A stretch of DNA of 64,000 nucleotides. Origin: Thermodesulfobacteriota bacterium (lineage in GTDB: Bacteria; Desulfobacterota_D; UBA1144; Nemesobacterales; JAJCZQ01). The notes under the pieces were generated by a model. The model saw only the letters and a list, made by a program, of their open reading frames with translations. It made no database searches and was not told where the DNA came from. The translations under genes and the position numbers were made by a program. Positions 5,876-27,044 of this stretch are shown here, one piece after another (the first letter of the stretch is position 1; each line of letters begins with the position of its first letter). The stretch lies in contig OZ244044.1 in NCBI GenBank assembly GCA_965215275.1, positions 1,312,001 to 1,376,000 of the forward strand, written 5' to 3'.

Positions 5876-6447
5876 AATATACAAAAAACAATGGAACAAT
5901 AGAATATTATATTTTTTTGGTGTCATACATAATTGTTATTTCTTTGTTTTATTCCCTCAAAAAACTATTAGCACCATATATAGATGAATTTATATATATT
6001 TTAATTTTTCCTGTCTCATCTCTTCTTATTAACTATTTCACATTATTTAACTTACTATCAAAATACTTTTTTAAACTCCCTTACTTAAAAAAATCAGTAG
6101 TGAACTTCAACGGCGAATGGAAAGTAAAAGGAGAGAGTAGTTATAATACTGGAAAATCTTTTGGTGGAACAATAAAAATTAAGCAAACTCTAACAGACAT
6201 ATCAGTCAACGCTTTTTTTAAAAAATCTAAGAGCAAAGCTATTAGTTGTCATGTTTTAAAAGAAAACGATAAAGAACAATTAATCTATAATTACTTTAAT
6301 TATCCACAAAACAGAGCAGGTAAATTGGACAAACATCATGGTACAGTTGTTTTAGAAAAGTTAGGGGATAATGAGTTACAAGGAGATTATTTTACTGATA
6401 GAAAACCACAAACAAAAGGAACTTTTAAACTTAAAAAAGTAAAATAG
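5872..6447 (+). CDS. cap15: CBASS Cap15-like effector (2 TM + beta-barrel, S-2TMbeta)
   Basis: Two N-terminal TM segments, then NFNGEWK...IKIKQT...LIYNYFNYP...HHGTVVL...LQGDYFTDR..TKGTF; ATGA overlap with the cyclase. Confidence 0.88.
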   Translation: MKYTKNNGTIEYYIFLVSYIIVISLFYSLKKLLAPYIDEFIYILIFPVSSLLINYFTLFNLLSKYFFKLPYLKKSVVNFNGEWKVKGESSYNTGKSFGGTIKIKQTLTDISVNAFFKKSKSKAISCHVLKENDKEQLIYNYFNYPQNRAGKLDKHHGTVVLEKLGDNELQGDYFTDRKPQTKGTFKLKKVK

Positions 6448-6557
6448 TTGTATACTACTATGCTGAAGTTTAAACAACTTCTTCTCTCACTTCTTTTATC
6501 AATTTTTATTTTTGTCTTTTAATTCAAATGCTTTTTGGAGAATTATATACTTATAAT

Positions 6558-6902
6558 ATGCAAGGGTTTATCGGTAAACATGCAGATGATAGATCTACAG
6601 TTTATGCAGACGATTATAAAAGCTATGAGGATATGAGTTTTAATCATAAGACCGTAAAACACAGCGTTGGAGAATTTGTAAACAGACAAGTTCATGTTAA
6701 TGGTGTAAAATCTTTCTGGGATTTGTTAAAAAGAGGATATTACGGAACTTTCCACCATATTAGTCCTAAATGTTTACATAGATACGTTAATGAATTTGCC
6801 AATCGGCGCAATTTGCGGAAATACGATACTGAAAAGATGATGCAAGAGATATACGCTTCAATGATCGGGAAACGCTTAATGTATGAAGATTTAATTGCTT
6901 AA
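6558..6902 (+). pseudogene. IS1595-family DDE transposase, C-terminal remnant
   Basis: QGFI...STVYADD...HKTVKHSVGEFV...HVNGVKSFW.LLKRGYYGTFHHISPK.LHRYVNEF..R.N; N-terminal Zn-ribbon/HTH part absent; Lys stands where the family has the catalytic Glu (NGIESFW). Confidence 0.88.
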
Positions 6903-6945
6903 TGGTTGTTTAGTGTGTAATAATTTTACTTAAGGAGAGGACACA

Positions 6946-7032
6946 ATGACCAAGAGGCATTTTTATCTACTACCGCCTATTGATGCTTCAACAGAGCAAA
7001 TAGCTCGTGCTTTATTTACGCCAAGAAAGTAA
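6946..7032 (+). CDS. small ORF (28 aa) downstream of the IS1595 transposase
   Basis: AAGGAGAGG RBS then MTKRHFYLLPPIDASTEQIARALFTPRK*; below the ORF track's length cut-off. Confidence 0.4.
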   Translation: MTKRHFYLLPPIDASTEQIARALFTPRK

Positions 7033-7184
7033 TCTGATCAAGTAAAGAAAGAGAACAATAACGAGGGCAAAGTTCGGTTCTCAAATAAAAATAATAAAGC
7101 AGGTTGAAAGCGTAAACGCCAAAAACAATGTAGTAGAAATTTATTACTTAATTATGCGGTCCTACTGCTTCTTTGTTTAATCTG

Positions 7185-8537
7185 ATGCGACAACATCTAT
7201 TCAAAACCAATACTAAAGATACTTCAATAGAAAACATCATAGAAGAAATTACAAAAAAGACTTCTAATGTTTTATCTATACCTAAAGACAAAGAGGGTAA
7301 CGGTGGGAATCATTTTGGATATTGGATGCAGACTTTAGCCGATGTACAATTTTTAGATATGGAGTTATCTGGATTAAGTGAAAATTATAAAATTGATACT
7401 ATAAAACATCAAGTTTACTTTAACAACAATAAAAATAATAAAGATACTGATTTTATAAAAGATAGAATAGCACATTTGGATACAGTTAATGGAGAAGGGA
7501 CATTGTATTCAGAATTGACTGATCTATTTGGAGATACAAATGCTTATGCTTTTCATAATTTATATCCATATAAAGGCAAGTTTTATCCAAGAATTGTTCG
7601 TGCTATTGCCAACGCTTTTAGACTGAATAAAAAACATTTGGTATTAGACCCTTATAACGGATGTGGAACTACAACACATGAGTGCGGTATTATGGGGATT
7701 AAGAGTATAGGGATAGATATTAATCCGATAGGGAATATAATCGCTTCTCTCAAAAATGAACTTCCCTCTTGTAATGAAAATATGTTTTGTTTATCTGATA
7801 AGCAAATTTTAGATATATACACTTCTTTAAAAGAAAAAACCATAAGTTTAAGAAAAACAAAAAATGTCTTATATAAGTTGTTGCTACTTATATATTTTGA
7901 TACGGTTGATGCTTTTGTAAGAACCACACGATACAATAAAAAAGGTGAGTTAGGTCTTTTTATTGAGAAATTTAATTACATAAAAGATTGCCATTTGAAG
8001 TTTAGGCAATTTTTAAAAAATAAAAACCTACATTACCAGAAGTCTAATTTAATAGAAGGTAATGTGCTTGATTTGAAGAAATCAGGAATTGAGGATGATT
8101 CAATAGATGCCATTATTACATCACCGCCTTATTATTTTTCATTAGATTACGTTGGAAAGGACAAAATTGCTTATGATTACTTAAATGACATACGCTTTTT
8201 TAATTATTCAATGAACGATGTTAAAAATGAGTATCTGGGTATGAAAACTAAAAAAGATGTTCTTGCAAAAAGACTCTTGGAAAAAAGAGTTATTACTTAT
8301 TTTATGGATTTAGATACTTCAATTAGAGAAATGGCAAGGGTTCTAAAAAGAGAGGGTAAGGTAGCTATTGTGATTGGTGATAGTTCTTTAGAGGGTAATA
8401 AATTACCCACAACTCAAAAAACACATCAATCTTGTCTTAAATATGGATTAAAACATATTAGAACAATTTTTAATCCATTACTTGGCACCAGAAATAGAGC
8501 TATTCGTGGAGAGAGCGTATTGTTATATGTGAAATAA
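7185..8537 (+). CDS. DNA amino-methyltransferase, probably N4-cytosine (alpha-type motif order)
   Basis: HNLYPYKGKFYP, SAM-binding LDPYNGCGTT, GIDINP, catalytic ITSPPY, ARVLKREG; start uncertain (TTG 7173 or ATG 7185). Confidence 0.9.
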   Translation: MRQHLFKTNTKDTSIENIIEEITKKTSNVLSIPKDKEGNGGNHFGYWMQTLADVQFLDMELSGLSENYKIDTIKHQVYFNNNKNNKDTDFIKDRIAHLDTVNGEGTLYSELTDLFGDTNAYAFHNLYPYKGKFYPRIVRAIANAFRLNKKHLVLDPYNGCGTTTHECGIMGIKSIGIDINPIGNIIASLKNELPSCNENMFCLSDKQILDIYTSLKEKTISLRKTKNVLYKLLLLIYFDTVDAFVRTTRYNKKGELGLFIEKFNYIKDCHLKFRQFLKNKNLHYQKSNLIEGNVLDLKKSGIEDDSIDAIITSPPYYFSLDYVGKDKIAYDYLNDIRFFNYSMNDVKNEYLGMKTKKDVLAKRLLEKRVITYFMDLDTSIREMARVLKREGKVAIVIGDSSLEGNKLPTTQKTHQSCLKYGLKHIRTIFNPLLGTRNRAIRGESVLLYVK

Positions 8538-8567
8538 ATTTGCTTCTTTAGATTAAAAAATAGCAAA

Positions 8568-9800
8568 ATGAAACGTAATATTCTCACTCTTCGAGATAAG
8601 TCTTATCTTTGCAACAGTGACAAACTTCTTTATGATCCTTACAAAAATATTGTTACAGAATTTTACAAGTTAGCGACAGATAAAGGAGCCAATGCTTTTG
8701 ATGTTGTTGCCCGTGAATTTAATGGCATTAACAGGGCTGAAATAAACATTCGTCATTACTATGAAGCGTTATTAGGTGTTACTTCTTATTTTCAAGCCTC
8801 AAAAGGTGGACGAGGAAAATATATCGAAAAGAAATTAGCTTCAGTATCAGATACTTGTTCTCTTGATAATAAAATAAGCGAACTTCCAAAATTAATACTA
8901 CATACTAATTTAGTTAGAAAGCACAAGTTATTTGGACAGAAAAGGCTAAGTAACGAAGAAAAAGAATCATTAAGACTTTGTGAGTGGGATTTTATTGGTA
9001 ATAGTAGGAATAAAGATCAAACAACAGACTTATGTAATTTATTTATAGATGAACACTTGATTTCATATTTAGAATTAAAAAACAGAGTGGACTCTGGAGG
9101 AACTTCAGCAAGAAGAGAAATTTTTGATAACAAATTCAGAGGTATTTTAGAACATTTTATAAATCCTAATCCTATCTTTAAATTAAGAAATAAAGAATAC
9201 ACTCTACCAGATTTTTATCAGCACTTTGGACTTAAAAAGATTAAAATTGCACTTGGAATATTATTTGACACTGAAGGAAATATTGCTACAAAAGAAAGTG
9301 ATCAGAGATTTGGATTCTACTCTTCAAGTAAAGAGGGATTCGCAAATCTTCTAGTATTTTTAAGAAAAAATAATTTAGATACAATATATACAGAAGAAAG
9401 TCTTTTCATTAGATTAAAAAGTGATTTTTCCATTGAAATAAAAAATCTTTATGGAAACCAAATATCTGAACACCTCTTTCACAAAAAAATTGATTTGAAT
9501 TCCTTAATCAAAAATAAGTATGATGACATATGGCTTTTCCAATTACTTACCATTGATGAAAGGCATCATTTATTGAAGTATAACAAAAATGTTACATTAG
9601 AATTAACTAGACAAATCGAAGCAGATTTTAATTTCAGAAAAGTTTTAAACGACTTTATTAATCAAAATGGAAAAGATATAAAAATATTAGAATTTTTTAT
9701 CAATAAATTACAAGTTGATAAAAAATTAATTCCCACAGGTAGGAACATCAAAGAATATTTAACAGATGTTCTATACTTTATAAGTGCTAATGATACATAA
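8568..9800 (+). CDS. putative type II restriction endonuclease
   Basis: Directly follows the MTase, AT-rich; TTDL...YLELKNRVDSGG fits a PD-(D/E)XK active site. Confidence 0.6.
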   Translation: MKRNILTLRDKSYLCNSDKLLYDPYKNIVTEFYKLATDKGANAFDVVAREFNGINRAEINIRHYYEALLGVTSYFQASKGGRGKYIEKKLASVSDTCSLDNKISELPKLILHTNLVRKHKLFGQKRLSNEEKESLRLCEWDFIGNSRNKDQTTDLCNLFIDEHLISYLELKNRVDSGGTSARREIFDNKFRGILEHFINPNPIFKLRNKEYTLPDFYQHFGLKKIKIALGILFDTEGNIATKESDQRFGFYSSSKEGFANLLVFLRKNNLDTIYTEESLFIRLKSDFSIEIKNLYGNQISEHLFHKKIDLNSLIKNKYDDIWLFQLLTIDERHHLLKYNKNVTLELTRQIEADFNFRKVLNDFINQNGKDIKILEFFINKLQVDKKLIPTGRNIKEYLTDVLYFISANDT

Positions 9801-9990
9801 ACTGTCTTGCATAGTGTAAGTATATAGTTCCCTTTACTATTACATTAATTACACTTTCTGGTATGTTTTTTCCGCTCGTTCTTTATTCTTATATATAGTC
9901 TGAGTTTGTTGTAATTTTGAGGTAGGCACAACTTTTAATGTAATTCTATATTGTGCTTTAATGGATATTGAAGTTAACTTAACCAGTTTC

Positions 9991-10007
9991 TCAAGTATGT
10001 AATTCCC
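9991..10007 (+). repeat. second IS1595-like right end
   Basis: TCAAGTATGTAATTCCC resembles the right IR end TAAGTATATAGTTCCC (9817-9832); its reverse complement matches the left IR at 13/16. Confidence 0.55.
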
Positions 10008-10037
10008 CAAACTTCAGGTATATACAGGAACATAAGA

Positions 10038-11390
10038 ATGGAAATAGAGAACATAGCACTTGAGATAAACGACTACATAGAAGATGGCAACGGTGAAGCC
10101 GTTAAAAGCAGACTTGGGGGACTGCATCCCTCCCAGATAGCGTCAATAATTCAGAACGTCAGTTCCGATAAACAGTCGTTTATCCTTGATTCTCTTGAAC
10201 CTGAGGTCACCTCGCAAGTTTACTTCGAACTGGATAGTGAGCAGCGCGAGGAGATAATAACCGAGCTTGACGAAGAAAAGATCGCCGATATTGCCGATGA
10301 GATGGAGTCCGATGACGCGGCAGACCTGATCGGTGAGCTTCCTGACCAGAAAGCGGAAAACGTCTTATCAAAAATGGACCCTGAAGAGGCCAAGGACATT
10401 GAACCGCTTCTCAGGTACCCAGTGGACACTGCAGGCGGGATCATGCAGGCAGAGCTTGTCAAGGTTACCAATGACAGCAATGTGAGAGATGCCATCAACT
10501 GGGTACGTCTGATAGCTGATGATCTGGAGGAGTTTCACGGAGTATTTATTACGGACAGGCACAAAAAACTACTTGGATTTGTTCCTCTTCGTAAATTAAT
10601 AATTGCAAACCCTAACTCGTCCGTGGAATCCGTAATGGATGAGGTCATGATCTCCACCACTCCCTACACGGACCAGGAGGAAGTATCCAATATATTTAAG
10701 AAGTACGATCTTGTAACGCTCCCGGTTATAAGCGATGAGGGCGTTCTTCTGGGCCGTATCACCTCGGATGACGTAATGGACGTTATCACGGAAGAAGCTG
10801 AAGAGGATATATTTCAGTTTGCCGGGTTAAAAGAACATCTACATCCGATCTACACGCCTCTGAGAGAAAGGATCAGATCAAGAACCCCTTGGTTGCTCCT
10901 GACGTTGGTTGGGGAGTTATTAATTGCTTTGATAATAATAAAGTTCTTTGAACCTACCTTGCAGAAAGTGGCGATCCTTGCCGCTTTTATGCCTGCTATA
11001 ATGGCAACCGGAGGCAACGTGGGACTTCAGACGACGACGATCATAGTCAGAAGTCTTGCAATGGGCACGGTAAAGATAAGACAGATATTCCGGATCATGC
11101 TTTCGGAAGTAACGGTGGGAGTAGCCCTTGGGGTCGTCTGCGGACTTATATCCTCCGTTATAGGGATACTTATCAGTTTCAGCGAACCGCAGGTACTGAG
11201 GCTTGGGCTTGCAGTGTTCCTGGCTATGCTGTCTGCTACCCTTGCTACATCGTTAATTGGGGTGGTGGCGCCAATTATGCTGCTGAAAACCGGCATGGAC
11301 CCGGCGGTGTCGTCCGGGCCATTTCTCACGATGTTCAACGATATATTCGGGTCTCTGTTCTATCTGCTGATAGCCATGCTTATTTTTTAA
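10038..11390 (+). CDS. mgtE: magnesium transporter MgtE
   Basis: MgtE N-domain (MESDDAADLI), CBS pair, RTPWLL, GGNVGLQTTT, DPAVSSGPFLTMFND. Confidence 0.96.
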   Translation: MEIENIALEINDYIEDGNGEAVKSRLGGLHPSQIASIIQNVSSDKQSFILDSLEPEVTSQVYFELDSEQREEIITELDEEKIADIADEMESDDAADLIGELPDQKAENVLSKMDPEEAKDIEPLLRYPVDTAGGIMQAELVKVTNDSNVRDAINWVRLIADDLEEFHGVFITDRHKKLLGFVPLRKLIIANPNSSVESVMDEVMISTTPYTDQEEVSNIFKKYDLVTLPVISDEGVLLGRITSDDVMDVITEEAEEDIFQFAGLKEHLHPIYTPLRERIRSRTPWLLLTLVGELLIALIIIKFFEPTLQKVAILAAFMPAIMATGGNVGLQTTTIIVRSLAMGTVKIRQIFRIMLSEVTVGVALGVVCGLISSVIGILISFSEPQVLRLGLAVFLAMLSATLATSLIGVVAPIMLLKTGMDPAVSSGPFLTMFNDIFGSLFYLLIAMLIF

Positions 11391-11405
11391 CGGACACGGG
11401 CAAGA

Positions 11406-12095
11406 ATGGAAAAATGTGAAGCCTTGATCATAAAAAAGTCGGTTTATAAAGAATCTGACTATCTTACAACGCTTTTCACTAAAAAGCACGGTAAGGTCAA
11501 GGCACTTGCGAGAAATGCAAAAAAAAGCCGGAAGAGGTTTGGAGGCAGACTGGACCCCTTTCTTGTTTTAAACGTGGACATATCTTTTAATAAGAACAGG
11601 TTCAACGTTCTGAATTACGTTTCTCTGGTAAGTTCGTACCCGAATATAATGAGCAGCGTTGAATCTTTTCTGATCGCGAACTTCGTCCTTGAACACCTGG
11701 ATATATTTGCCTGCGAAGGGCAGTCTAACGAAGGGTTGTTTAATGAAACTGTCAAAACCTTTGAACGAATGAACAAGGGACACGACCTGTTCCTCGTGCT
11801 GCTGAACTTTCAGCTTGACCTTCTGAGGATAAGCGGTATCAAACCGGATTTTAATGAAAGAGGATCTGACGCTGCGATATTTGATATAGTGGATGGGTGT
11901 TTGCATAATAAAGCGGGCAGATCAGAGAACGAAAGATATCGGCTGTTCCATACGGATATTATTACCAGACCGGAACTTATGGAAATATCTTCTGACAAGG
12001 TCGTCCACAACGTAAAAGTGCTTACGGGGTATATTGAGTACCACGCGGAAAGAAAGTTCAAATCCTCTGAATTTCTCGGAGAACTGACCTTTTAA
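11406..12095 (+). CDS. recO: DNA repair protein RecO
   Basis: YKESD..TLFTKKHGKVKALARNAKKSRKRFGGRLDPF. Confidence 0.92.
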   Translation: MEKCEALIIKKSVYKESDYLTTLFTKKHGKVKALARNAKKSRKRFGGRLDPFLVLNVDISFNKNRFNVLNYVSLVSSYPNIMSSVESFLIANFVLEHLDIFACEGQSNEGLFNETVKTFERMNKGHDLFLVLLNFQLDLLRISGIKPDFNERGSDAAIFDIVDGCLHNKAGRSENERYRLFHTDIITRPELMEISSDKVVHNVKVLTGYIEYHAERKFKSSEFLGELTF

Positions 12096-18223: not shown

Positions 18224-18242
18224 AAGTTTCTAAGATTCTTTA

Positions 18243-19271
18243 CTAATTTCCTAATACTGTTTCTAACATACTTTTTAACCTGTTTGAATCTTTGACTAAC
18301 TTGCGAATTTCTTCTTTAAGTGCATTGATGTCATTGCGGTCCAGTTTTTCTAGGTCGGGTCGGTCGACACCCTCTATGGATGCACGAGCTCGTTTGACTT
18401 TCGCAAGAGGAACACTAATTCTAGCAGATTGATACGCATCATCAAAAGTAAGGTCACTTCTGATATATCTCTTTAAAATCTTGTTTTTGTTGATAATTTT
18501 TGGCAATTTGTTTCTAAGGTCTTGTGCTGTAAATTCATTTTTATCGGTATTATCATTGTTATCATCATTACTGGTAAGATTCCTTATTTTATTCAATATA
18601 AAACAACGAAGTTCATTATTTTTAGAGAAACCATCAGATATTGCCTTGCTCCTAACAATTACATCGTAATAACTAAAATGATACATATTGCTGTCTTGAT
18701 TTTTCTTCATTAACCTAATGGTTTCTATCCTTGTTTTAATCTCCTTTAATGTTTCTCCGAACCGTTCTGCTATATCGGTTTCTTTGATACCCCTATCATA
18801 TCTAACATAAGCAAAATTAGCTTTTTCATATGCGGTCCATTGAGTTTTTCCTTTGACATGAATCTGGTTAAGTAATGCATCTTGTTGTTCATCAGAAAGC
18901 CTAGAGACTATTTGACAGGGAATAAGTTCCCATTCTTCGTTATCTGGATATTTCTCATGTAAGCGATGAAAAACCGCCAGTCGAGAATTTCCTTCGATTA
19001 CTTCTTTTGTATCGTGTCTTACCAGAATTGGTTCTAATAATCCACCATGCTTTTCAATATCTGGGACCAAGTTTTTGACACTTGTTTCGCTGGAGAGTTT
19101 CTCATAGATGATTGTTTGTTGTTCATCAATAGTGAGTTCGTCAAAGTTTTCAACTTCGTGGGTACAAGAAAATACTCGAGGATTATCTCTTAGATATTTT
19201 AATTCATAGATGGACAGATAGTCATACGAGACTGGTATATTAACTTTCAAGATTTTTATTGAATTGTTCAT
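18243..19271 (-). CDS. ParB/Srx-like N-terminal domain protein (paralogue B)
   Basis: DNPRV...GGLLEPILV....VIEGNSRLA...HVKGKTQWTAYEKA, then an HTH-like segment. Confidence 0.75.
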   Translation of the reverse strand: MNNSIKILKVNIPVSYDYLSIYELKYLRDNPRVFSCTHEVENFDELTIDEQQTIIYEKLSSETSVKNLVPDIEKHGGLLEPILVRHDTKEVIEGNSRLAVFHRLHEKYPDNEEWELIPCQIVSRLSDEQQDALLNQIHVKGKTQWTAYEKANFAYVRYDRGIKETDIAERFGETLKEIKTRIETIRLMKKNQDSNMYHFSYYDVIVRSKAISDGFSKNNELRCFILNKIRNLTSNDDNNDNTDKNEFTAQDLRNKLPKIINKNKILKRYIRSDLTFDDAYQSARISVPLAKVKRARASIEGVDRPDLEKLDRNDINALKEEIRKLVKDSNRLKSMLETVLGN

Positions 19272-19283
19272 ATTAGTTTTTCT

Positions 19284-20756
19284 CTAAGTAAATTGATAAT
19301 TTTTATATTGAAGAATTTGTTTTAATGCTTCGGACAAATCAAAATTGAATTCTTTTTTAAATTCATTTTGTGAAATATCCCCTTGTGCCAATTGAGCTGC
19401 TTGATGTTTAGCATTCAATAATATATCTACCCATTCATCAATAGTTTCTTTTGCAATAAGGTTGTGAACAAAGCAACTCTCTTTCTGTGGTATTCTGTGA
19501 ATACGGTCTTGAGCCTGCAAATAATCATCAAGGCTAAATCCACGGTCATAAAACACTGCATGCTTTGCTATAGTTAAAGTCAAACCTTCTTTTGCAGCAC
19601 CTGGCGTGGCTAACAAGATTTTACAGGAAGGTTGTGTTTTGAACCTTCTTATTGCATCATATCGCTTCTCAATAGAAATCTTCCCATGCACTTTTGCTGG
19701 AAGTAATGATTGTAGTTTATTGCTTAACCATTCTATATTTTCCACAAAACATGTCCATACAATAACCTTATTTGTCTGAATATTAATTTCTTGGATTAGT
19801 TTTTCTAATCTAACAAACTTGCTTGGTAGACCTTTATATGTTTCATCCACAAGCATAGGGTTGGAGGCACACTGTACAAGACGCAATAATCTCTTCAAAA
19901 CATCTTCTGCGTTATCTTTTATAATACCTTTATCACTTTTGAACTCATAAATCAAGTCATTTCTGTATGATGCATAAATGTTTGCTTGGTTAGGTTCTAA
20001 TTCAACAAAATGTGTAAGTATGGTCTTATTAGGAAGGGCAATTCCTGCTGTTTTCTTTGTCTCACGTACAGAAAATTCCTTTAGTCTTTCCATTGTTTCA
20101 GAGAGTTTTTCTCCATACGGATGTATATTCTCTGTTTTATCTGGTAGGTCTACAGAGTTTTTAAATTTGGCGAAAGAATCTCCGAGTGACTTGCCACAAT
20201 CAAGAAATTTAATTTGAGACCACAAATCCTGTGGACGATTGGCAACTGGAGTTCCTGTCATTATAATACGACGAGAAAAATGGGTTGATAAGGAGTGAAA
20301 ATCTATTGAAAGTTTTGCCTTTGGGTTTTTAATTTTTTGGCTTTCGTCAAGGATTACTCCAACACGACAAGTGCTGAGAAATAAGTGAATAAGGTCAATG
20401 TTAGCAGATATAACTTCATAGTTCATTACATATATTAACACTGGTGAATTTAGGGCTATGCTGTTTTTACGACGATTTTCTGACAGAATTTTTGGAGTTA
20501 CATATGAGTGGGTTGATAACTCATCTATCCAGTTTTGAACTAGTATTTTTTTTGTAACGATAAACGCTGTATCAACGATGTCATTTTCAAGCCAATACAA
20601 GATCAAATCAACGGCGATCTTTGTTTTTCCAAGTCCCTGTTCATGAAAGATTGCAGCGTAAGGAAGTGGTCTTACAGCTCTGACGGCATCAAGTTGATAT
20701 GGGTAGGCTTCTAACTTAGCAGTCAACTTCGGTGGTTTTCTTAGTTTAAATGCCAC
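19284..20756 (-). CDS. SNF2-family (SF2) helicase/ATPase
   Basis: YPYQ, HEQGLGKT, LDESQKIKN, MTGTPVAN, EGLTLT, QAQDRIHRI. Confidence 0.92.
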   Translation of the reverse strand: MAFKLRKPPKLTAKLEAYPYQLDAVRAVRPLPYAAIFHEQGLGKTKIAVDLILYWLENDIVDTAFIVTKKILVQNWIDELSTHSYVTPKILSENRRKNSIALNSPVLIYVMNYEVISANIDLIHLFLSTCRVGVILDESQKIKNPKAKLSIDFHSLSTHFSRRIIMTGTPVANRPQDLWSQIKFLDCGKSLGDSFAKFKNSVDLPDKTENIHPYGEKLSETMERLKEFSVRETKKTAGIALPNKTILTHFVELEPNQANIYASYRNDLIYEFKSDKGIIKDNAEDVLKRLLRLVQCASNPMLVDETYKGLPSKFVRLEKLIQEINIQTNKVIVWTCFVENIEWLSNKLQSLLPAKVHGKISIEKRYDAIRRFKTQPSCKILLATPGAAKEGLTLTIAKHAVFYDRGFSLDDYLQAQDRIHRIPQKESCFVHNLIAKETIDEWVDILLNAKHQAAQLAQGDISQNEFKKEFNFDLSEALKQILQYKNYQFT

Positions 20757-21190
20757 TTGACACCACCAATAGAGTCAAAAAACCAGTGATCGTATGTATC
20801 AAAAATTTGTATTTGTGTGTTATTCAACTTTATCTCTTTACAAAGAAACCTCAGCACTGTCTTGGCACGGTCAACTCCCGAACCGTTTACAGCAAAAACA
20901 AAAATACTTTTTCTCCAGTCTTTTTCTAGATACTCTATAAACGCCCTTAATTGATCATATGTATGTTTATTATCAATATCTGTATCTGTTTTAGCTTCTG
21001 CAATTACAATCAAATTCTCTTTATCATATGCATATACATCTGGTCTAAAACCACTGATAAGAGGTGGGATTTCATCACCTGGAAATTTCTGCAAATCAGA
21101 AATAACTATAAGTTCTCCGTAATTTGTTTTTATTGACTTTGCTATTGAGTTGACTAGTTGCTGGTGTTCTTCACTCTGAGACATTTTCAA
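20741..21190 (-). CDS. small PD-(D/E)XK-fold putative nuclease
   Basis: EEH...GFRPDVYA....IAEAKT motif; start could be ATG 21184. Confidence 0.6.
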   Translation of the reverse strand: MKMSQSEEHQQLVNSIAKSIKTNYGELIVISDLQKFPGDEIPPLISGFRPDVYAYDKENLIVIAEAKTDTDIDNKHTYDQLRAFIEYLEKDWRKSIFVFAVNGSGVDRAKTVLRFLCKEIKLNNTQIQIFDTYDHWFFDSIGGVKWHLN

Positions 21191-22205
21191 GCAATTTTTT
21201 CAAACGGTCCATAAGTTCTTCAAGTATTATAATATGTTCAGAAGAATTTTTTTGTTTTTTATCTCTCATCTCACAAATTTCCTCAAAAGGCAACTCGTCA
21301 ATGCGCTTTGAGAGAGATTGTGCAATTTGATATATGGAAAGTTCTTCGAGTTTAGAACTTTCTAAAGGTTTACTTCTTTTTGCATCTTCTTTATCCTCAA
21401 CAATTTTTACAGCTTGTTTTATTGAATTAGGACCACCTTGTAAAAAAACCTCTTTGGCTTCATCATCACAAAGCACTTTTGGCAATTCACGTACATCTTC
21501 CAAACGGTATATTTTTCCGTCTTTAATCCATTCGCCAAAATCCTTAAGTTCTAATCCTGCATTGTAAATGGCGTCTTTAATTTTAGTTCTTTGTAGTTCC
21601 ACAAACCCGCTAAAGCGGTCAATATGAAATGCTGTATCATCAACTATGTCACGATAGTATTCGTTCATATCATTATAAGCATCAATCTGTTTTTGTATTT
21701 CCTTTTTGTTTCCTCCGCAGAGATTTATCATTTCATTGTAATTCATAAAATCGGAATTGTATAAATAGTGAAGATATCTCGCTTTTTCATATGCGGGCCA
21801 CTCTCTTGCACCAATTAAATGAGCTGAAACACGTATTGCCTCAATTTCACTTTGGCTTAGGTTCTCTTTCACTATAGCTTTTATCTTTGACCAATTTCCT
21901 TCAGTGTTTTCCTTAAGAAACTCTTTATAGATTGCGAGACGAGTGTTTCCATCAATGCAGATTGTTTTATTATTTTTCTTTGTAACAGTAATAGGGATTG
22001 TTATCTCTCCTTGGGCACGAATTGAATCTTTCAGTCGGGAAAATGAAGAAGTGTCCTTTGATTCTCCACTTGTAGCAGAACTTAGGGCAAAGTGGATACG
22101 CTCAGCAGTTATTTTGTCTTTGTATCTTATCAGAGCTCCCTTAATTCGTGGATTTTCAGTGTCAAAATCTATTTTTTCAACGTCAAGCATTATGTACTGG
22201 TCCAT
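21171..22205 (-). CDS. ParB/Srx-like N-terminal domain protein (paralogue A)
   Basis: FDTENPRI...LKDSI...PITV....IDGNTRLA...HLIGAREWPAYEKA. Confidence 0.75.
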   Translation of the reverse strand: MDQYIMLDVEKIDFDTENPRIKGALIRYKDKITAERIHFALSSATSGESKDTSSFSRLKDSIRAQGEITIPITVTKKNNKTICIDGNTRLAIYKEFLKENTEGNWSKIKAIVKENLSQSEIEAIRVSAHLIGAREWPAYEKARYLHYLYNSDFMNYNEMINLCGGNKKEIQKQIDAYNDMNEYYRDIVDDTAFHIDRFSGFVELQRTKIKDAIYNAGLELKDFGEWIKDGKIYRLEDVRELPKVLCDDEAKEVFLQGGPNSIKQAVKIVEDKEDAKRSKPLESSKLEELSIYQIAQSLSKRIDELPFEEICEMRDKKQKNSSEHIIILEELMDRLKKLLENVSE

Positions 22206-22318
22206 ACTATTGTCTCCTAGTTAGCCGAAACGGCATAATAATCAGATGTTTAATTATCTATTTATCATAATTTGTCGATTTTATCACGTTTTATATAAAT
22301 TGAGAAATGAGTTAGTTG

Positions 22319-23887
22319 TTAGCTTTCCAGTCCTGCGTCCTCAACAAATTCATCCTCAGCAAGATTGCAACCAATTTGTTGATTTATTTCTTCTTGTAAT
22401 CTGTAAATTTCTTCTGTTTCAGATTTTGTGGCTTTCTTATAGAATGAAGTTATTTTCTTGATTTTGGAGTTTTTAAAGCCATTACCAATTGTTCTTTTCT
22501 TTGAGTAACGATTTTCTGGTAAAGAAAGCCAGTTTAAGAGTTCCTTTTTATCGTCTTCCGACAATTTAGATAATTGACTTTTAAAATCGTCAAATTCACC
22601 TTGTCCACCTTGTTCTCTAAACCACTTTCTATGAAATATGTATCGATGTGGATAGAGAAGAATTTCTTTAAATTCATCAGTGGAACTTCCAAAGGCATAA
22701 TTAAAAAAACCCGGGTTGCCACTTACAACCCCGTGTGTTGCTTGTAATATAATTTGAAAAGAACGTAGTTGATACCAAGTCCATTTTTCTCCGATGTGAG
22801 TTCTATCTGGTAGGTCTGTTGGTTGATAACGCATGGGAAATGACCAAATGCGGATATTAAGTTCTTCGTTCAATTCAATGTTTAGTTCCATTCTCTTGTA
22901 TAGGTCGTCAGGTGTATCATGAAAGTTGTAAAGCATATAATTGGAGAGTCTATCCATACCATACTTATGAGCAAAGCGTATTGAAGTTTCATACTGTTTG
23001 CGGAGCCCCCAATGATCAAAGGCAATCCGCAGAGGACTAACACATAACTTTGACATTTCTTTTAAAAACATCTCGTTCTTGCACAAAATACGGGAGTCGA
23101 CTCCCTGATTGAAATCTACCCTCCTTTTTAAATTAGAACGCCCTCTTTTAATTTTAGCTCCCTTTGAAAATCCTAAATTTTGTATTTCTGCAACAAGTTC
23201 ACGGAAATTTTGCGAGGCGGTGAAGTTATTATCCATCAGAACTAAATCTTTTTTTTCTCCATATTTTTTTGCTATACCTTCTACAATGCCTGATATAGAA
23301 GGAGTGTCTCGCTGAGCTCCTTCTAACTTTGGAACACCACAAAAGCGACAAGAACGAACACATCCACGAGAAGCGTAGGTAAAATAAGCATCTCTAACTG
23401 GATAAACATAGTCTACTTGCTCAAGAATACTGTAATCGGGAATTAAATCCTCTATTGGTGTTCCTTTTGTATCTTCTTGATAAAAATCCCTCTTGCTAAG
23501 TTGTAAGGATTTGGCAGGCGAATCAGACAGGAGACCTGTTATAAATCTAATTCCTCTCCACTTTCCTTTGTTGTTTTTCTGTTCATCTGTAAAAATTTTG
23601 TGCATCAAAGATACAGCAATCCCACCAACAAATATCTTATTTTTTTTAGACCTTGATACTTGTATTGCAAAATCTATAGTTTTTGCAATACGTTTAAATT
23701 CAAAAGAGAATAGGGTTGTAATGTAAATTCTATCCCAATCCAAACTATAAACCAAAGGGTCTTCTCCTTTTATAAAGTGAACATTATCATTCTTTCCAAT
23801 GTGGTACTGAGCAATTTTCATTAGCCCCAAAGGTGGATACTTATTTCTATAGCCGGGTTCTATTAGTAAGATATTTTTTGAAGGCAT
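22319..23887 (-). CDS. radical SAM protein with N-terminal B12-binding-like domain
   Basis: ILLIEPGYRNKYPPLGLMKIA, VGGIAVSL, SRGCVRSCRFC (CxxxCxxC), LMDNNF, VDFNQGVD, LRIAFD; ATG 23887 preferred to TTG 23905. Confidence 0.9.
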   Translation of the reverse strand: MPSKNILLIEPGYRNKYPPLGLMKIAQYHIGKNDNVHFIKGEDPLVYSLDWDRIYITTLFSFEFKRIAKTIDFAIQVSRSKKNKIFVGGIAVSLMHKIFTDEQKNNKGKWRGIRFITGLLSDSPAKSLQLSKRDFYQEDTKGTPIEDLIPDYSILEQVDYVYPVRDAYFTYASRGCVRSCRFCGVPKLEGAQRDTPSISGIVEGIAKKYGEKKDLVLMDNNFTASQNFRELVAEIQNLGFSKGAKIKRGRSNLKRRVDFNQGVDSRILCKNEMFLKEMSKLCVSPLRIAFDHWGLRKQYETSIRFAHKYGMDRLSNYMLYNFHDTPDDLYKRMELNIELNEELNIRIWSFPMRYQPTDLPDRTHIGEKWTWYQLRSFQIILQATHGVVSGNPGFFNYAFGSSTDEFKEILLYPHRYIFHRKWFREQGGQGEFDDFKSQLSKLSEDDKKELLNWLSLPENRYSKKRTIGNGFKNSKIKKITSFYKKATKSETEEIYRLQEEINQQIGCNLAEDEFVEDAGLES

Positions 23888-24090
23888 ATCAGATTTTCTC
23901 TTCAAATATGAATTATAAAGGATATTTATTACATTTATGATATCAAACTTGATTCTTATTTAGTAGATGCGACCTAACTTGCTTTAATTTATCCCGCTTA
24001 TATAAAAATAGTGAGAGATAACATAAGGTGTAAATTCAATTGCTGGCTTGTTTATTTATAACAAATAAGAATAATCAAGCCAATCCTATA

Positions 24091-24429
24091 TTAACACCCA
24101 AAGTTGGTAGAGTCTGATCCATTCTCTTTCTTTTTTAGTCTTGCTGTTGCGTTGTTCCAAAAAAGGTAATGCAGCAAGACCACTGCCAGCAAAATCAAGG
24201 GGATTATGAACTTTAAGACGTTTGCAGTCAGAGCATTGTTCGTAGTGAGCAGATAAAAAAAGGTAAATGAAAGTGCTGATACGACGCAAAGCAGCAATAT
24301 GTATACCTTGACGGATGGCCTGTCCAAAGAAAGGTGACTGCTGCATTTACGGCATTTAAAACTGAACGGGTTCAGGACGGTTAGACTTTCCATGAATCCT
24401 ATTTTTGCTTTACAAACGGGGCAGTTCAT
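24091..24429 (-). CDS. small zinc-ribbon (CxxC-x19-CxxC) membrane protein
   Basis: CPVC...CRKC followed by two TM helices. Confidence 0.7.
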   Translation of the reverse strand: MNCPVCKAKIGFMESLTVLNPFSFKCRKCSSHLSLDRPSVKVYILLLCVVSALSFTFFYLLTTNNALTANVLKFIIPLILLAVVLLHYLFWNNATARLKKKENGSDSTNFGC

Positions 24430-24520
24430 AGTTTTGTGATATTTTTTCTTACAGAATGTGAAGGGGAATTATATATTTAACTGTGCGAAAATAAAATATA
24501 GCTTTTGTATATTTATGCAC

Positions 24521-24560: not shown

Positions 24561-27044
24561 ATGAACATATTCTTTAAGATAATACCCCCCCCGTCTAAGT
24601 TAGTAATTACCTTTTTCTTTCTTCTGTGCTTTGTGTCCATTGGTGCATATGGTCAGACCAGCGTTGATAACTGCGACTCCAGTGCAACGACAGAAGCTAC
24701 ATTGACAGTAGCCGGAAGTACACGTAGTGGAAGTTTATCTGCCGGTGATAATCCGCATTACTTTCAGATAGACATGAATGAAAGATTGATCGTAGCTATA
24801 ATAGTAACCTTCCCCTTCTCCAATGATCAGGGATACAGCTTACAGTTATGTGACAGCAATGATTATCTGATAGCAAGTGCTGCTGGAGTTCGTATTGATG
24901 ATGAGGGTATAGTGAGGGTCACTATAGAAACTCGCCTCAGACCTGAAACGTACTATATAGTAGTGGGAAGCAGTGTTGCCACAACCTACAATGTAACAGT
25001 TGTGGTATCTGATCTTAATACTATATTTGATGATGACTGTCCGGAAAGTAGTACTACCAATTATCCGGATGATCCCTTATACGGGTGTCAGTGGTATCTG
25101 AAACGTCAGGCGGGTGAGTTAAGATTAGGCGAATTAATAACCGGCGAAGATATAAACATAGAAGAGGTCTGGGATGATGCCGTATTTGGTGCTGGGATTA
25201 ACGTGGCGGTGGTAGATCATGGTATGGACACAGATCATGAGGACCTTGCTGATAATGTGGATACCACACTTTCTCATGATTATTCAGGAAGCGGTGATCT
25301 GTACAGTCCTTCAAGTGGTCGTGGTACACGTGTAGCTGGCATTATAGCAGCAGTGGGTGATAACAGCCTTGGAGTAAGAGGTGTAGCACCACAGGCAGGT
25401 ATCTACAGTTATAATTTAGCTGATAACTTCAGTGATACTAATGCAAAGGACGCCATGGTCCGTAATAAGGATATAACGGCTGTATCTGTCAACAACTGGG
25501 GACCGAAGGACCTGCCGGTTCTTACAGAGGCTTCATCAGAGTGGGAAGAAGGAGTGGAAACTGGTATAAGAGAAGGATTTGGTGGTAAAGGAGTATTTTA
25601 CGTATGGGCGGCAGGGGACGGACATGAAGGAGCAGACCAGGCTAATTTTAATGAGTATTCCAGCTACTATGCTGTAACTACCGTATGTTCAGCAGAAACC
25701 GATAGTGAGACGAAAGTTATTACTAAGAGTTCCTTTTCAGAAGAGGGATACAATCTATGGGTATGTGCACCGGGTTCTGGTATTGTAACGACGGACAATA
25801 ACGACATTTATACTTTTGAGTTCCCTGGAACGTCAAATTCAGCTGCTGTCGTTTCAGGAATTGCAGCACTGATACGGGAGGTAAACAGTGATCTTAGCTG
25901 GCGAGACCTGAAACTGATACTGGCAGGTTCAGCCAGCCAAGGTCTTCGTCCTCAGAACGACCCAAACTGGAGGAGAAGAGGGCATAAATACGGTTCTGAT
26001 TCAGAACGTTATGATTACGGTCCAAAGTACGGTTTTGGCATGGTAGATGCTGCTGCGGCAGTAGAACTTGCAGGGAACTGGAATAACGTTCCACCGCCAA
26101 TGAGACCCGTGACGGTTTCCTCGGGTAATATCAATACGGTTATTCCAGATCTCACAACGGGAAATGCAGAAGACGTTTCCGTCGTTTTCACACTGAACGT
26201 ACCTGATATCGATATACCAGGTACTGAGGTCTTTACAGAATTTATAGAGATAGGTCTCAATTTCACTCACCCTTTCTTTCCTTTTTTAGATATAGAAATA
26301 ACTTCCCCTGACGGTACCGTGTCTAGACTCACTGAGGAGTATGCATCAGAAGCGTTATCACATTTATTATCTGACAGGTCTCTTACTGTAGACGACTTTA
26401 AGTACACGGGCAGAGATCACCGTTTTGGTTTAGCCAATCACCTGGGAACGGACCCTGCCGGAGAGTGGACCCTGAAGATAACTAACGCTTCAGTTGCAGG
26501 TACGGGAACCTTACACTCATGGAACATTAAGGTCTATGGTCATATGTCTGGGGACACGCCGACGTTCGGCGGCTGGACCATACCAGATAAGAATTACGTG
26601 CCGGGAACTGCAATAAAGGAAACACTGCCTGAGGCAACAGCAGGGAATGGAGAATTAACCTACAGCCTTTCCCCTCTTTTACCTGCTACTGGTTTACCTG
26701 CTGGACTTGCTTTCAGCGAAACTGACAGAGTGCTTAGCGGAACACCAACTGCTGTATCTTCCGGCAGTTATACATATAAGGTAACGGATGAAGATGGAGA
26801 TACGGATCAGCTGAGATTCACTATCAGGGTAACAACCACGCCTCCAGGACCAACAGACCCACCAACAACAAGACCACCGACACGAAGACCGACACCATCA
26901 GGTAGTGATGCAGGTGGAGGAGGATGTGCGGTCTCCGAGCAGAACGAAGCTGCTTCTGATATGCTCACAGCAGTGGCATCTCTGATGCTTATACCTGTAT
27001 CCGTTGTGATAAGAAGGAAGATAAGGTCTCGGATAAAAACCTAA
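24561..27044 (+). CDS. secreted kexin-like S8 protease homologue (predicted inactive) with P-domain, Ig-like domain and GGGGC-TM-RRK tail
   Basis: VAVVDHG, RGTRVAG (His replaced by Arg), WAAGDG (Asn replaced by Asp), GTSNS, YGFGMVDA; P-domain GEWTLKI...LHSW; LSGTPT Ig-like module; Pro/Thr linker. Confidence 0.88.
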   Translation: MNIFFKIIPPPSKLVITFFFLLCFVSIGAYGQTSVDNCDSSATTEATLTVAGSTRSGSLSAGDNPHYFQIDMNERLIVAIIVTFPFSNDQGYSLQLCDSNDYLIASAAGVRIDDEGIVRVTIETRLRPETYYIVVGSSVATTYNVTVVVSDLNTIFDDDCPESSTTNYPDDPLYGCQWYLKRQAGELRLGELITGEDINIEEVWDDAVFGAGINVAVVDHGMDTDHEDLADNVDTTLSHDYSGSGDLYSPSSGRGTRVAGIIAAVGDNSLGVRGVAPQAGIYSYNLADNFSDTNAKDAMVRNKDITAVSVNNWGPKDLPVLTEASSEWEEGVETGIREGFGGKGVFYVWAAGDGHEGADQANFNEYSSYYAVTTVCSAETDSETKVITKSSFSEEGYNLWVCAPGSGIVTTDNNDIYTFEFPGTSNSAAVVSGIAALIREVNSDLSWRDLKLILAGSASQGLRPQNDPNWRRRGHKYGSDSERYDYGPKYGFGMVDAAAAVELAGNWNNVPPPMRPVTVSSGNINTVIPDLTTGNAEDVSVVFTLNVPDIDIPGTEVFTEFIEIGLNFTHPFFPFLDIEITSPDGTVSRLTEEYASEALSHLLSDRSLTVDDFKYTGRDHRFGLANHLGTDPAGEWTLKITNASVAGTGTLHSWNIKVYGHMSGDTPTFGGWTIPDKNYVPGTAIKETLPEATAGNGELTYSLSPLLPATGLPAGLAFSETDRVLSGTPTAVSSGSYTYKVTDEDGDTDQLRFTIRVTTTPPGPTDPPTTRPPTRRPTPSGSDAGGGGCAVSEQNEAASDMLTAVASLMLIPVSVVIRRKIRSRIKT

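Follow-up and report, generated by a model that had tools for sequence, protein, structure and literature searches.

What is the function of a gene cluster that combines a radical S-adenosylmethionine (SAM) enzyme with two ParB-like proteins, a small nuclease and an SNF2-family motor? Such a cassette of five genes is located directly behind lon in a stretch of 64,000 nt from contig OZ244044.1 of a Thermodesulfobacteriota bacterium (the window, to whose positions unprefixed coordinates refer), where it occupies 18243-23887. The cassette represents a reduced version of a larger, modular system, the usual core of which comprises the radical SAM enzyme and a GHKL/MORC-type ATPase, often together with a DndB-like gene. 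We consider it probable that they constitute a restriction-modification-like defence system, in which the enzyme would mark the host DNA and the block of ParB, nuclease, SNF2 and ParB would cleave DNA that lacks the mark or bring about cell death. This reading draws on the occurrence of enzyme relatives in the place of a DNA writer, on the AbiR system as an analogue, and on the precedent of a ParB-activated thymine dioxygenase. What the data show directly are the genes with their motifs and folds, the co-occurrence of these genes, purifying selection, and a genome that lacks the GHKL partner.

The five genes and their insertion site

As described in the initial annotation of the window, all five open reading frames (ORFs) are intact and co-oriented on the minus strand:

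22319..23887, minus strand: radical SAM enzyme, predicted DNA-modifying subunit, 522 aa from ATG, with an N-terminal Rossmann domain and CxxxCxxC at residues 176-183
21171..22205, minus strand: ParB-a, ParB-fold protein of 344 aa with NPR, GNTR and a helical C-terminal part
20741..21190, minus strand: small PD-(D/E)XK-type nuclease of 147-149 aa with PD..AEAKT, ATG at 21184
19284..20756, minus strand: minimal SNF2-family ATPase/translocase of 490 aa, motifs complete
18243..19271, minus strand: ParB-b, ParB-like protein of 342 aa and old paralogue of ParB-a, with NPR and GNSR
18225..24088, no strand: variable cargo slot, bounded by the stop codons of lon and of a gene for a 112-aa CxxC zinc-finger protein, from DNA comparison with the genome G018

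An in-frame TTG would lengthen the radical SAM gene to 23905. The stop codons of lon and ParB-b face each other tail to tail at a distance of 19 bp. The radical SAM gene is separated from ParB-a by 113 bp, and the remaining genes are tightly coupled, with overlaps of 14 or 20 bp and of 16 bp followed by a gap of 12 bp. The G+C content of the cassette is 32-37%, compared with 45-48% in lon and 42.5% in the whole genome, and the G+C content at third codon positions is 0.27-0.29 versus 0.49 in lon. Neither an integrase nor a DNA methyltransferase was found within the cassette, and the motifs named previously (CxxxCxxC, PD..EAK, GKT and GNxR) were all located in the respective proteins. The earlier description of the cassette, including its AT-richness, position and coupling, is thereby confirmed.

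A contig of a second study (run X5, 22167-23130) runs across the junction between the radical SAM gene and ParB-a with 0 differences, so that the absence of an ATPase gene at this point is not an assembly artefact; the junction of lon and ParB-b is spanned by a likewise identical contig of a third study. No Rfam match and no second copy of the cassette elsewhere in the genome were detected, and the numbers of promoter-like sites (27, with 25.1 expected) and terminator-like sites (6, with 3.0 expected) were uninformative.

Similarity at the DNA level to G018, a genome of the same genus, stops at 18224, the stop codon of lon, and restarts at 24089, which marks the region in between as a cargo slot. 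In G018 this slot harbors the candidate defence gene PDC-S01; behind lon, G019 carries a type I HsdR gene and PDC-S01, and G020 carries unrelated genes. The proposal of a defence-type location is borne out by these occupants. A search for direct repeats of at least 8 bp flanking the slot found none. The cassette was horizontally acquired and is intact, and broken or partial copies in relatives of the host (L116 in G117, L123 in G058, L155 in G065 and L156 in G039) point to frequent gain and loss of the system. The kinds of breakage among these copies comprise frameshifted enzyme and GHKL genes, an enzyme fragment, a lone ParB-a beside an insertion-sequence-like ORF, and a truncated ParB-a fusion.

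Such mobility would also suit a selfish addiction module or counter-defence cassette, in which the mark protects the DNA of the element against restriction by the host, the nuclease block ensures that the element is retained, and phage defence gains little. This alternative shares the DNA-modification step with the defence reading. It draws on the occurrence of relatives of the system on plasmids and viral contigs, on a patchy distribution in the class of the host (6 of 120 relatives), on the remnants, and on short stand-alone enzyme relatives on phage-like contigs, two of which directly precede a methyltransferase-like gene. We nevertheless regard it as improbable, as the cassette is chromosomal, carries no mobility gene and resides at a site that harbors other defence genes in relatives.

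A larger radical SAM-GHKL system

Searches of species-representative genomes yielded 599 matching stretches, 571 of which encode a relative of the enzyme; the following counts rest on the best 80. A GHKL/MORC-type ATPase gene directly follows the enzyme gene in 74 of the 75 loci with at least 1.5 kb of downstream sequence, mostly with an overlap of 4 bp, and the GHKL-linked enzymes are 54-62% identical to that of the cassette. Of the 80 loci, 49 contain a DndB/DGQHR gene and 31 the ParB-nuclease-SNF2-ParB block, and other loci contain PIN-GHKL, HerA or DUF5131 modules in place of the block. The earlier view of the cassette as a system of its own therefore stands with respect to conserved synteny and mobility, while its five genes turn out to be a reduced form of the larger one.

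Searches starting from the SNF2 side show that the constant pairing is that of the block with the radical SAM enzyme and not with the GHKL ATPase. A radical SAM gene was found in all seven plasmid records, two of which are versions of one plasmid. Among viral loci, it was found in six out of six with at least 45% identity in SNF2 and in none of the other 74 (25-32%), in an alignment scan covering 49 of the 64 parts of the viral contig collection; a scan of viral contigs with a single SNF2 sequence gave no match. In addition, all five genomes with the ParB pair among 120 relatives of the host also carry the enzyme. A profile of the short enzyme type had no match in these 120 relatives, in a search that had no positive control. 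The predicted complex of radical SAM enzyme and GHKL ATPase from L022 scored 0.44, against 0.25 for one control, and was counted for neither side. A different arrangement was observed on eleven viral contigs (L090, L091, L093, L094, L099-L101 and L103-L106), where a gene of 355-410 aa, a HerA-like ATPase, GHKL and radical SAM genes occur together.

Relatives of the enzyme in the place of a DNA writer

Beyond the GHKL-linked loci, distant members of the enzyme family occur next to components of other defence systems. In the viral loci L088, L089, L092 and L097, they are encoded 4-65 bp behind homologues of PD-Lambda-5_A (PADLOC E 8e-72 to 4e-29) and show about 40% identity to the cassette enzyme over 228-253 aligned residues. 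The second gene of PD-lambda-5 is reportedly the methyltransferase. In three of these four loci the next gene is not a methyltransferase gene, L089 ends at this point, and no GHKL gene is present in any of the four. This two-gene form is located on prophage-like contigs (e.g. L092:8364-11617). PD-lambda-5 itself is described as a compacted restriction-modification and abortive infection system with a methyltransferase label (PMC9519451).

Further relatives precede PbeA/PbeC in L131 and L247, and another follows DrmA/DrmB and a NERD helicase in L133. In L247 (1205-11346), Lamassu (LmuA, LmuB) is followed by a radical SAM fusion protein of the short type with 632 aa and by PbeA and PbeC. Taken together, the neighbourhoods of PD-Lambda-5_A, PbeA/PbeC and DrmA/DrmB place the enzyme repeatedly where a DNA writer would be expected. 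On these contexts, DNA modification is the most likely task of the enzyme, as the initial annotation had proposed together with a reading of the mark by its partners. A more far-reaching view is possible but tentative: the family may be a general-purpose DNA writer, setting an undescribed modification through radical chemistry, that is swapped into the methyltransferase slot of unrelated defence systems, the cassette being its smallest self-contained chromosomal form, in which ParB clamps take over loading from GHKL.

Stand-alone relatives of 350-385 aa were also observed on phage-like contigs (L252, L254-L256, L249, L258 and L262), one of them with an intein-like insert (L262). Some precede a block that reads like HNH and terminase genes, a label from sequence reading, and those of L249 and L258 directly precede methyltransferase-like genes. 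A crude motif scan of low sensitivity detected methyltransferase-like ORFs in only three of the scanned enzyme-bearing loci, with a fourth match in the lon locus L135, and was given no weight.

Comparison with known systems

The absence of a named system with this composition had been stated before and is upheld. No PADLOC 2.0 model matches the enzyme, and by its components the cassette belongs to none of AbiR, PD-lambda-5, Dnd/Pbe, Dpd, DISARM, Zorya, BREX and viperin, although on the best reading it would work like the first four. No description of the five-gene composition was found in a search of mainly open-access literature.

AbiR, from the Lactococcus plasmid pKR223 with the LlaKR2I methylase, combines a ParB-fold protein, a nuclease and an SNF2-type ATPase with a DNA-modifying enzyme, and we propose it as the experimental analogue for the block. 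According to its published description, it comprises three genes, namely the sigma70-like AbiRi, the single ParB protein AbiRii and the nuclease-SNF2 fusion AbiRiii, besides a SAM-dependent methylase. The combination of ParB and nuclease-SNF2 is toxic in the absence of its methylase (PMC13064643). By this description, the cassette differs from AbiR in that it has a pair of ParB paralogues, encodes its small nuclease as a separate protein and contains a radical SAM enzyme. Its SNF2 protein has no N-terminal nuclease domain, a sigma70-like gene is missing from the cassette, and plasmid searches with ParB-a and SNF2 returned no Lactococcus record.

PD-lambda-5 (Vassallo 2022) resembles the cassette in the pairing of a ParB-type effector with a modifier and in the distant enzyme relatives encoded behind PD-Lambda-5_A homologues. 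It has a methyltransferase and no SNF2, whereas the cassette has SNF2 and no methyltransferase. The ParB proteins of the cassette gave no PD-Lambda-5_A match at E 0.1, and hhalign with one PD-Lambda-5_A protein gave 72%. With Dnd/Pbe and Dpd, the cassette has in common a core predicted to modify DNA, a ParB-fold protein resembling DndB/DpdB, and helicase-nuclease modules that can be exchanged; DpdE is of the SNF2 type as well. The cassette lacks DndC/D/E, DpdA/C and a DGQHR gene, and its predicted modifier is a radical SAM enzyme. None of the five proteins had a PADLOC match to DndC, DndD, DndE or PbeA/C, and the Dpd test gave only a generic SNF2 likeness to DpdE. Likewise, the DISARM, Zorya and BREX cores (DrmABC, ZorAB and PglZ) are absent, and only the SNF2 protein matches DrmD, ZorD and BrxHI over the helicase core, far below the NCBIfam cut-offs.

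Two further groups show partial likeness. Prokaryotic MORC/paraMORC restriction-modification operons combine a GHKL ATPase with SF2/SWI2-SNF2 helicases and nucleases (Iyer 2008, PMC2292703). GHKL, SNF2 and nuclease thus occur together there as in the six-gene relatives of the cassette, which itself has no GHKL gene; neither 'radical' nor 'ParB' occurs in the main text of that article. The thymine dioxygenases of the 5mYOX type employ a ParB-fold partner in post-replicative modification of DNA bases, in that a phage enzyme needs a ParB-like activator on double-stranded DNA (PMC13229309). Their Fe(II)/2-oxoglutarate chemistry, their role in phage hypermodification and the lack of a nuclease or motor are their own. 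These dioxygenases offer a precedent for a ParB protein serving a DNA-modifying enzyme and, with it, one way in which GHKL could be dispensable.

The form without a GHKL ATPase

The genome of the cassette (G000) is a single contig with a completeness of 99.87%. The closest relative of the cassette, L001, lies in a genome of the same order that is 94% complete (G027) and is the sole locus without GHKL among the 75. It displays the identical order of the five genes at a different site, behind purE. With a profile of the cognate GHKL ATPase, three control genomes give 542-548 bits, and the scores do not exceed 41 bits for G000 and 34 bits for G027; neither of these two genomes contains a DGQHR gene. 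The absence of GHKL rests on these profile searches, since a search with Pfam PF13589 was discarded as a test after it missed the cognate GHKL even in genomes possessing one. The MORC gene at G000:958571 was considered as the missing partner and rejected, as it belongs to another cluster (L138, G000:C1:958571-965810). In that cluster, which resembles a MORC-Z1-nuclease-AIPR operon, the MORC-type GHKL ATPase gene is followed by genes of 911, 345 and 689 aa.

Between the cassette and L001, the proportion of synonymous differences is 0.63-0.77 in all five genes and thus near saturation, while the nonsynonymous divergence (dN) amounts to 0.128 in the radical SAM gene and to 0.22-0.33 in the remaining four, with 0.215 for Lon of the same genomes. 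The form without GHKL is therefore old and under purifying selection. In an SNF2 tree (FastTree, midpoint root), the cassette and L001 fall into a well-supported clade with six GHKL-bearing cassettes, a position which suggests that GHKL was lost in their lineage. Two further forms without GHKL are found elsewhere in the tree. In L120, the enzyme gene comes last and the genome contains a second, complete copy that could supply GHKL. The provirus L167 shows the exact gene order of the cassette (6176-11431), with an enzyme of 452 aa that is only 22% identical (hhalign 95%) and overlaps ParB-a by 4 bp. The family of this enzyme comprises more than 5,000 clusters, and a reverse-transcriptase-like ORF, so labelled from sequence reading, lies just upstream.

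Decay has to be considered as well, with the cassette as a remnant of the six-gene system that became inactive when the ATPase was lost, in view of the near-constant adjacency of GHKL and enzyme in the genome loci, mostly with the 4-bp overlap, and of a long stem and a deletion of two residues in an acidic loop near 129-134 in the enzyme clade. This explanation appears highly improbable. Every reading frame is intact and every catalytic motif preserved, L120 and L167 are further forms without GHKL, and seven more proteins (77-92% identical) join the enzyme clade on short branches. Moreover, the saturated synonymous sites combined with low dN largely refute it, as do the conserved order in a second genome and an enzyme that has changed less than Lon. 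An attempt to tie 14 clade-specific changes of the enzyme to the loss of GHKL was abandoned: the GHKL-bearing L119, L121 and L122 differ at 23-24 conserved columns, compared with 17 for the cassette, and the context is known for two of the nine clade members.

Predicted proteins and the product of the enzyme

By its CxxxCxxC motif and a partial TIM-barrel core, the enzyme is a member of the radical SAM superfamily. C176, C180 and C183 are invariant across 25 aligned proteins, an acidic C-terminal motif (EDExVEDAGL) is conserved, and the Pfam Radical_SAM match (E 0.0013) misses the cut-off. Proteins of about 60% identity occur in many phyla, with 7,341 of 7,998 scored candidates passing E 1e-20. 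The AlphaFold model (mean predicted local distance difference test, pLDDT, 68.5) gave Foldseek matches to MiaB, OxsB, TsrM, MgmA, CysS, AprD4 and TokK, the top matches being radical SAM enzymes throughout. In a wide fold search the best whole-protein match was MgmA (Z 9.3, root-mean-square deviation 12.0, 300 aligned residues). RimO was among the fold matches too, and a PDB sequence search gave weak RimO matches only. The enzyme resembles the class B radical SAM enzymes (OxsB, TsrM, TokK, MgmA, CysS and AprD4) and MiaB/RimO in its predicted N-terminal Rossmann domain, radical SAM core and CxxxCxxC, at 10-15% identity and far below the NCBIfam cut-offs.

In methylthiotransferases such as MiaB and RimO, three conserved N-terminal cysteines hold an auxiliary 4Fe-4S cluster. 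The 25 aligned proteins show no conserved cysteine before C176 and no cysteines for a second cluster, and with 14-17 bits against cut-offs of 251-357 this identity was rejected. Use of cobalamin by the enzyme is plausible, because residues 1-118 of the model match cobalamin-binding domains at Z 9.4-9.9, although the scores of response regulators are only slightly lower. No Pfam B12-binding match was obtained for the cassette enzyme itself, and the L001 orthologue has a weak one (E 1.7e-4). Two other genes of the host genome encode B12-binding domains, and a search of this genome for CobS gave no match.

For ParB-a and ParB-b no Pfam ParB match was found, nor did a PDB sequence search with the ParB alignment return any. 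The model of ParB-a (pLDDT 80.5) has ParB, Noc and KorB as top Foldseek matches (best E 5.8e-6), and its Atlas neighbours carry PF02195, so ParB-a is assigned to the ParB/Srx fold on its predicted structure. ParB-b, 25% identical to ParB-a over 215 aa, is placed in the fold putatively, by this homology only. The motif GN(T/S)R is present in all ten aligned ParB-like proteins, and NPR and GN(T/S)RL in both ParB-a and ParB-b. The nuclease keeps PD..AEAKT in seven of seven aligned sequences and has weak REase_AHJR-like and HSDR_N matches below the Pfam cut-off, and the motor possesses GLGKTK, DESQ and QAQDRIHR. In PADLOC 2.0, ParB-b had no match at E 0.1, ParB-a and the nuclease had faint matches to PDC-M38A and PDC-M15A only, and SNF2 matched only generic helicase models.

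Two further explanations concern the product of the enzyme, and both seem unlikely. A viperin-like antiviral nucleotide, as formerly suggested, found no support and was ranked lower, since no PADLOC 2.0 family, viperin included, matches the enzyme at E 0.1. To our knowledge, viperins also lack an N-terminal Rossmann domain. In its general form, this explanation assumes a modified nucleotide, a chain terminator or signal, which is sensed or turned over by the ParB-fold proteins and thereby activates nuclease and motor. It gains from the binding of various nucleoside triphosphates by ParB folds (10.1101/2025.10.10.680097), from the diol dehydratase AprD4 among the fold matches and from the fact that most loci have a gene of the ParB-fold or DndB-like kind close to that of the enzyme, and loses by the enzyme taking the place of a methyltransferase beside PD-lambda-5A.

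Alternatively, the enzyme might modify a protein, e.g. by C-methylation of the ParB, nuclease or SNF2 subunit, and so restrain a toxic effector in a toxin-antitoxin or abortive infection switch without any DNA mark. MgmA, the best whole-protein match, is a protein glutamine C-methylase, RimO was also matched, and the dyad with a PD-lambda-5A-like effector fits the role of an antitoxin. Furthermore, a preprint places a neighbourhood of HSP90, radical SAM enzyme and cyclase among toxin-antitoxin-like systems (10.64898/2026.10.19.760177). Against this, the partners differ completely between loci (ParB-nuclease-SNF2, PIN-GHKL, HerA, PbeA/C, DrmA/B and PD-lambda-5A) while the enzyme is about 60% identical across phyla, leaving DNA as the common ground, and in L167 the same block takes an enzyme of only 22% identity.

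Proposed mechanism

In the restriction-modification-like system that we favour, the enzyme would use SAM and a 4Fe-4S cluster, probably with cobalamin in the N-terminal Rossmann domain, to alter an unactivated C-H position in double-stranded DNA, located in either a base or a deoxyribose; C-methylation would be the most likely reaction. The ParB-fold pair would bind a nucleoside triphosphate and load or hold the enzyme, the motor or both on DNA, and the SNF2 motor would track along the DNA and license the small nuclease where the mark is absent. In most relatives, the enzyme is predicted to be assisted by the GHKL/MORC ATPase, in many cases together with a DndB-like protein. As the lineage of the cassette manages without GHKL and the DndB-like protein, this ATPase would be an accessory loader and not a part of the chemistry.

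Several points weigh against this reading. The fold matches act on tRNA (MiaB), proteins (RimO, MgmA) or small molecules (OxsB, TsrM, AprD4), and we know of none among these enzymes, TokK and CysS included, that acts on DNA. The enzyme model is poor near the cluster motif, with a pLDDT below 50 for residues 118-195, and residues 1-118 match response regulators (Z 8.7-8.8) nearly as well as cobalamin-binding domains. The loci in which the enzyme would replace another writer hold distant subfamilies (22-40% identity), whose chemistry need not match, and the 80 genome loci are the best matches to one query and not a random sample. A shift in function is conceivable in view of the long stem of the enzyme clade (0.52) and of changes at 14 of 238 conserved columns. 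Finally, adjacency to PbeA/PbeC is weak evidence, since the CxC/Pbe systems, which couple to phosphorothioation or cytosine methylases, also occur without a modification gene (PMC10853773).

Neighbouring features of the window

Outside the cassette, the gene at 24091-24429 encodes the 112-aa membrane protein with CxxC..CxxC, which is TIGR04104-like below the cut-off, occurs in G018 and G020 and belongs to the host backbone. A stretch of about 40 bp upstream of it (24460-24500) has five further genomic copies with 89-100% identity. At 24561-27044 lies the gene for a subtilase of 827 aa with a P-domain, an Ig domain and a C-terminal membrane anchor; G018 and G020 lack it in the interval from the zinc-finger gene to dnaE, and many divergent look-alike contigs were observed in the sequencing runs. 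A second islet of low G+C content (26-30%) at 7173-9800 contains genes for a type II-like DNA methyltransferase of 454 aa (N6_N4_Mtase) and a following ORF of 410 aa, which had no Pfam, PADLOC or NCBIfam match; it is probably a type II restriction-modification pair.

Significance

Bacterial self-marks on DNA known to us are set by methyltransferases, by phosphorothioation or by deazaguanine insertion. If the favoured reading is true, a radical SAM writer would mark DNA by a chemistry not seen before and would define a further class of immunity of the restriction-modification type; the novelty would lie in the composition and the predicted chemistry, with a familiar logic of distinguishing self from non-self. 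The family concerned is large: it comprises more than 7,000 protein clusters, and 571 stretches have been confirmed in species-representative genomes. Within it, the cassette is a natural deletion experiment, according to which the system can dispense with the ATPase that neighbours the enzyme in 74 of 75 loci. As a unit of five genes and 5.7 kb it is the simplest construct, and the question of how the enzyme would reach DNA shifts to the ParB pair.

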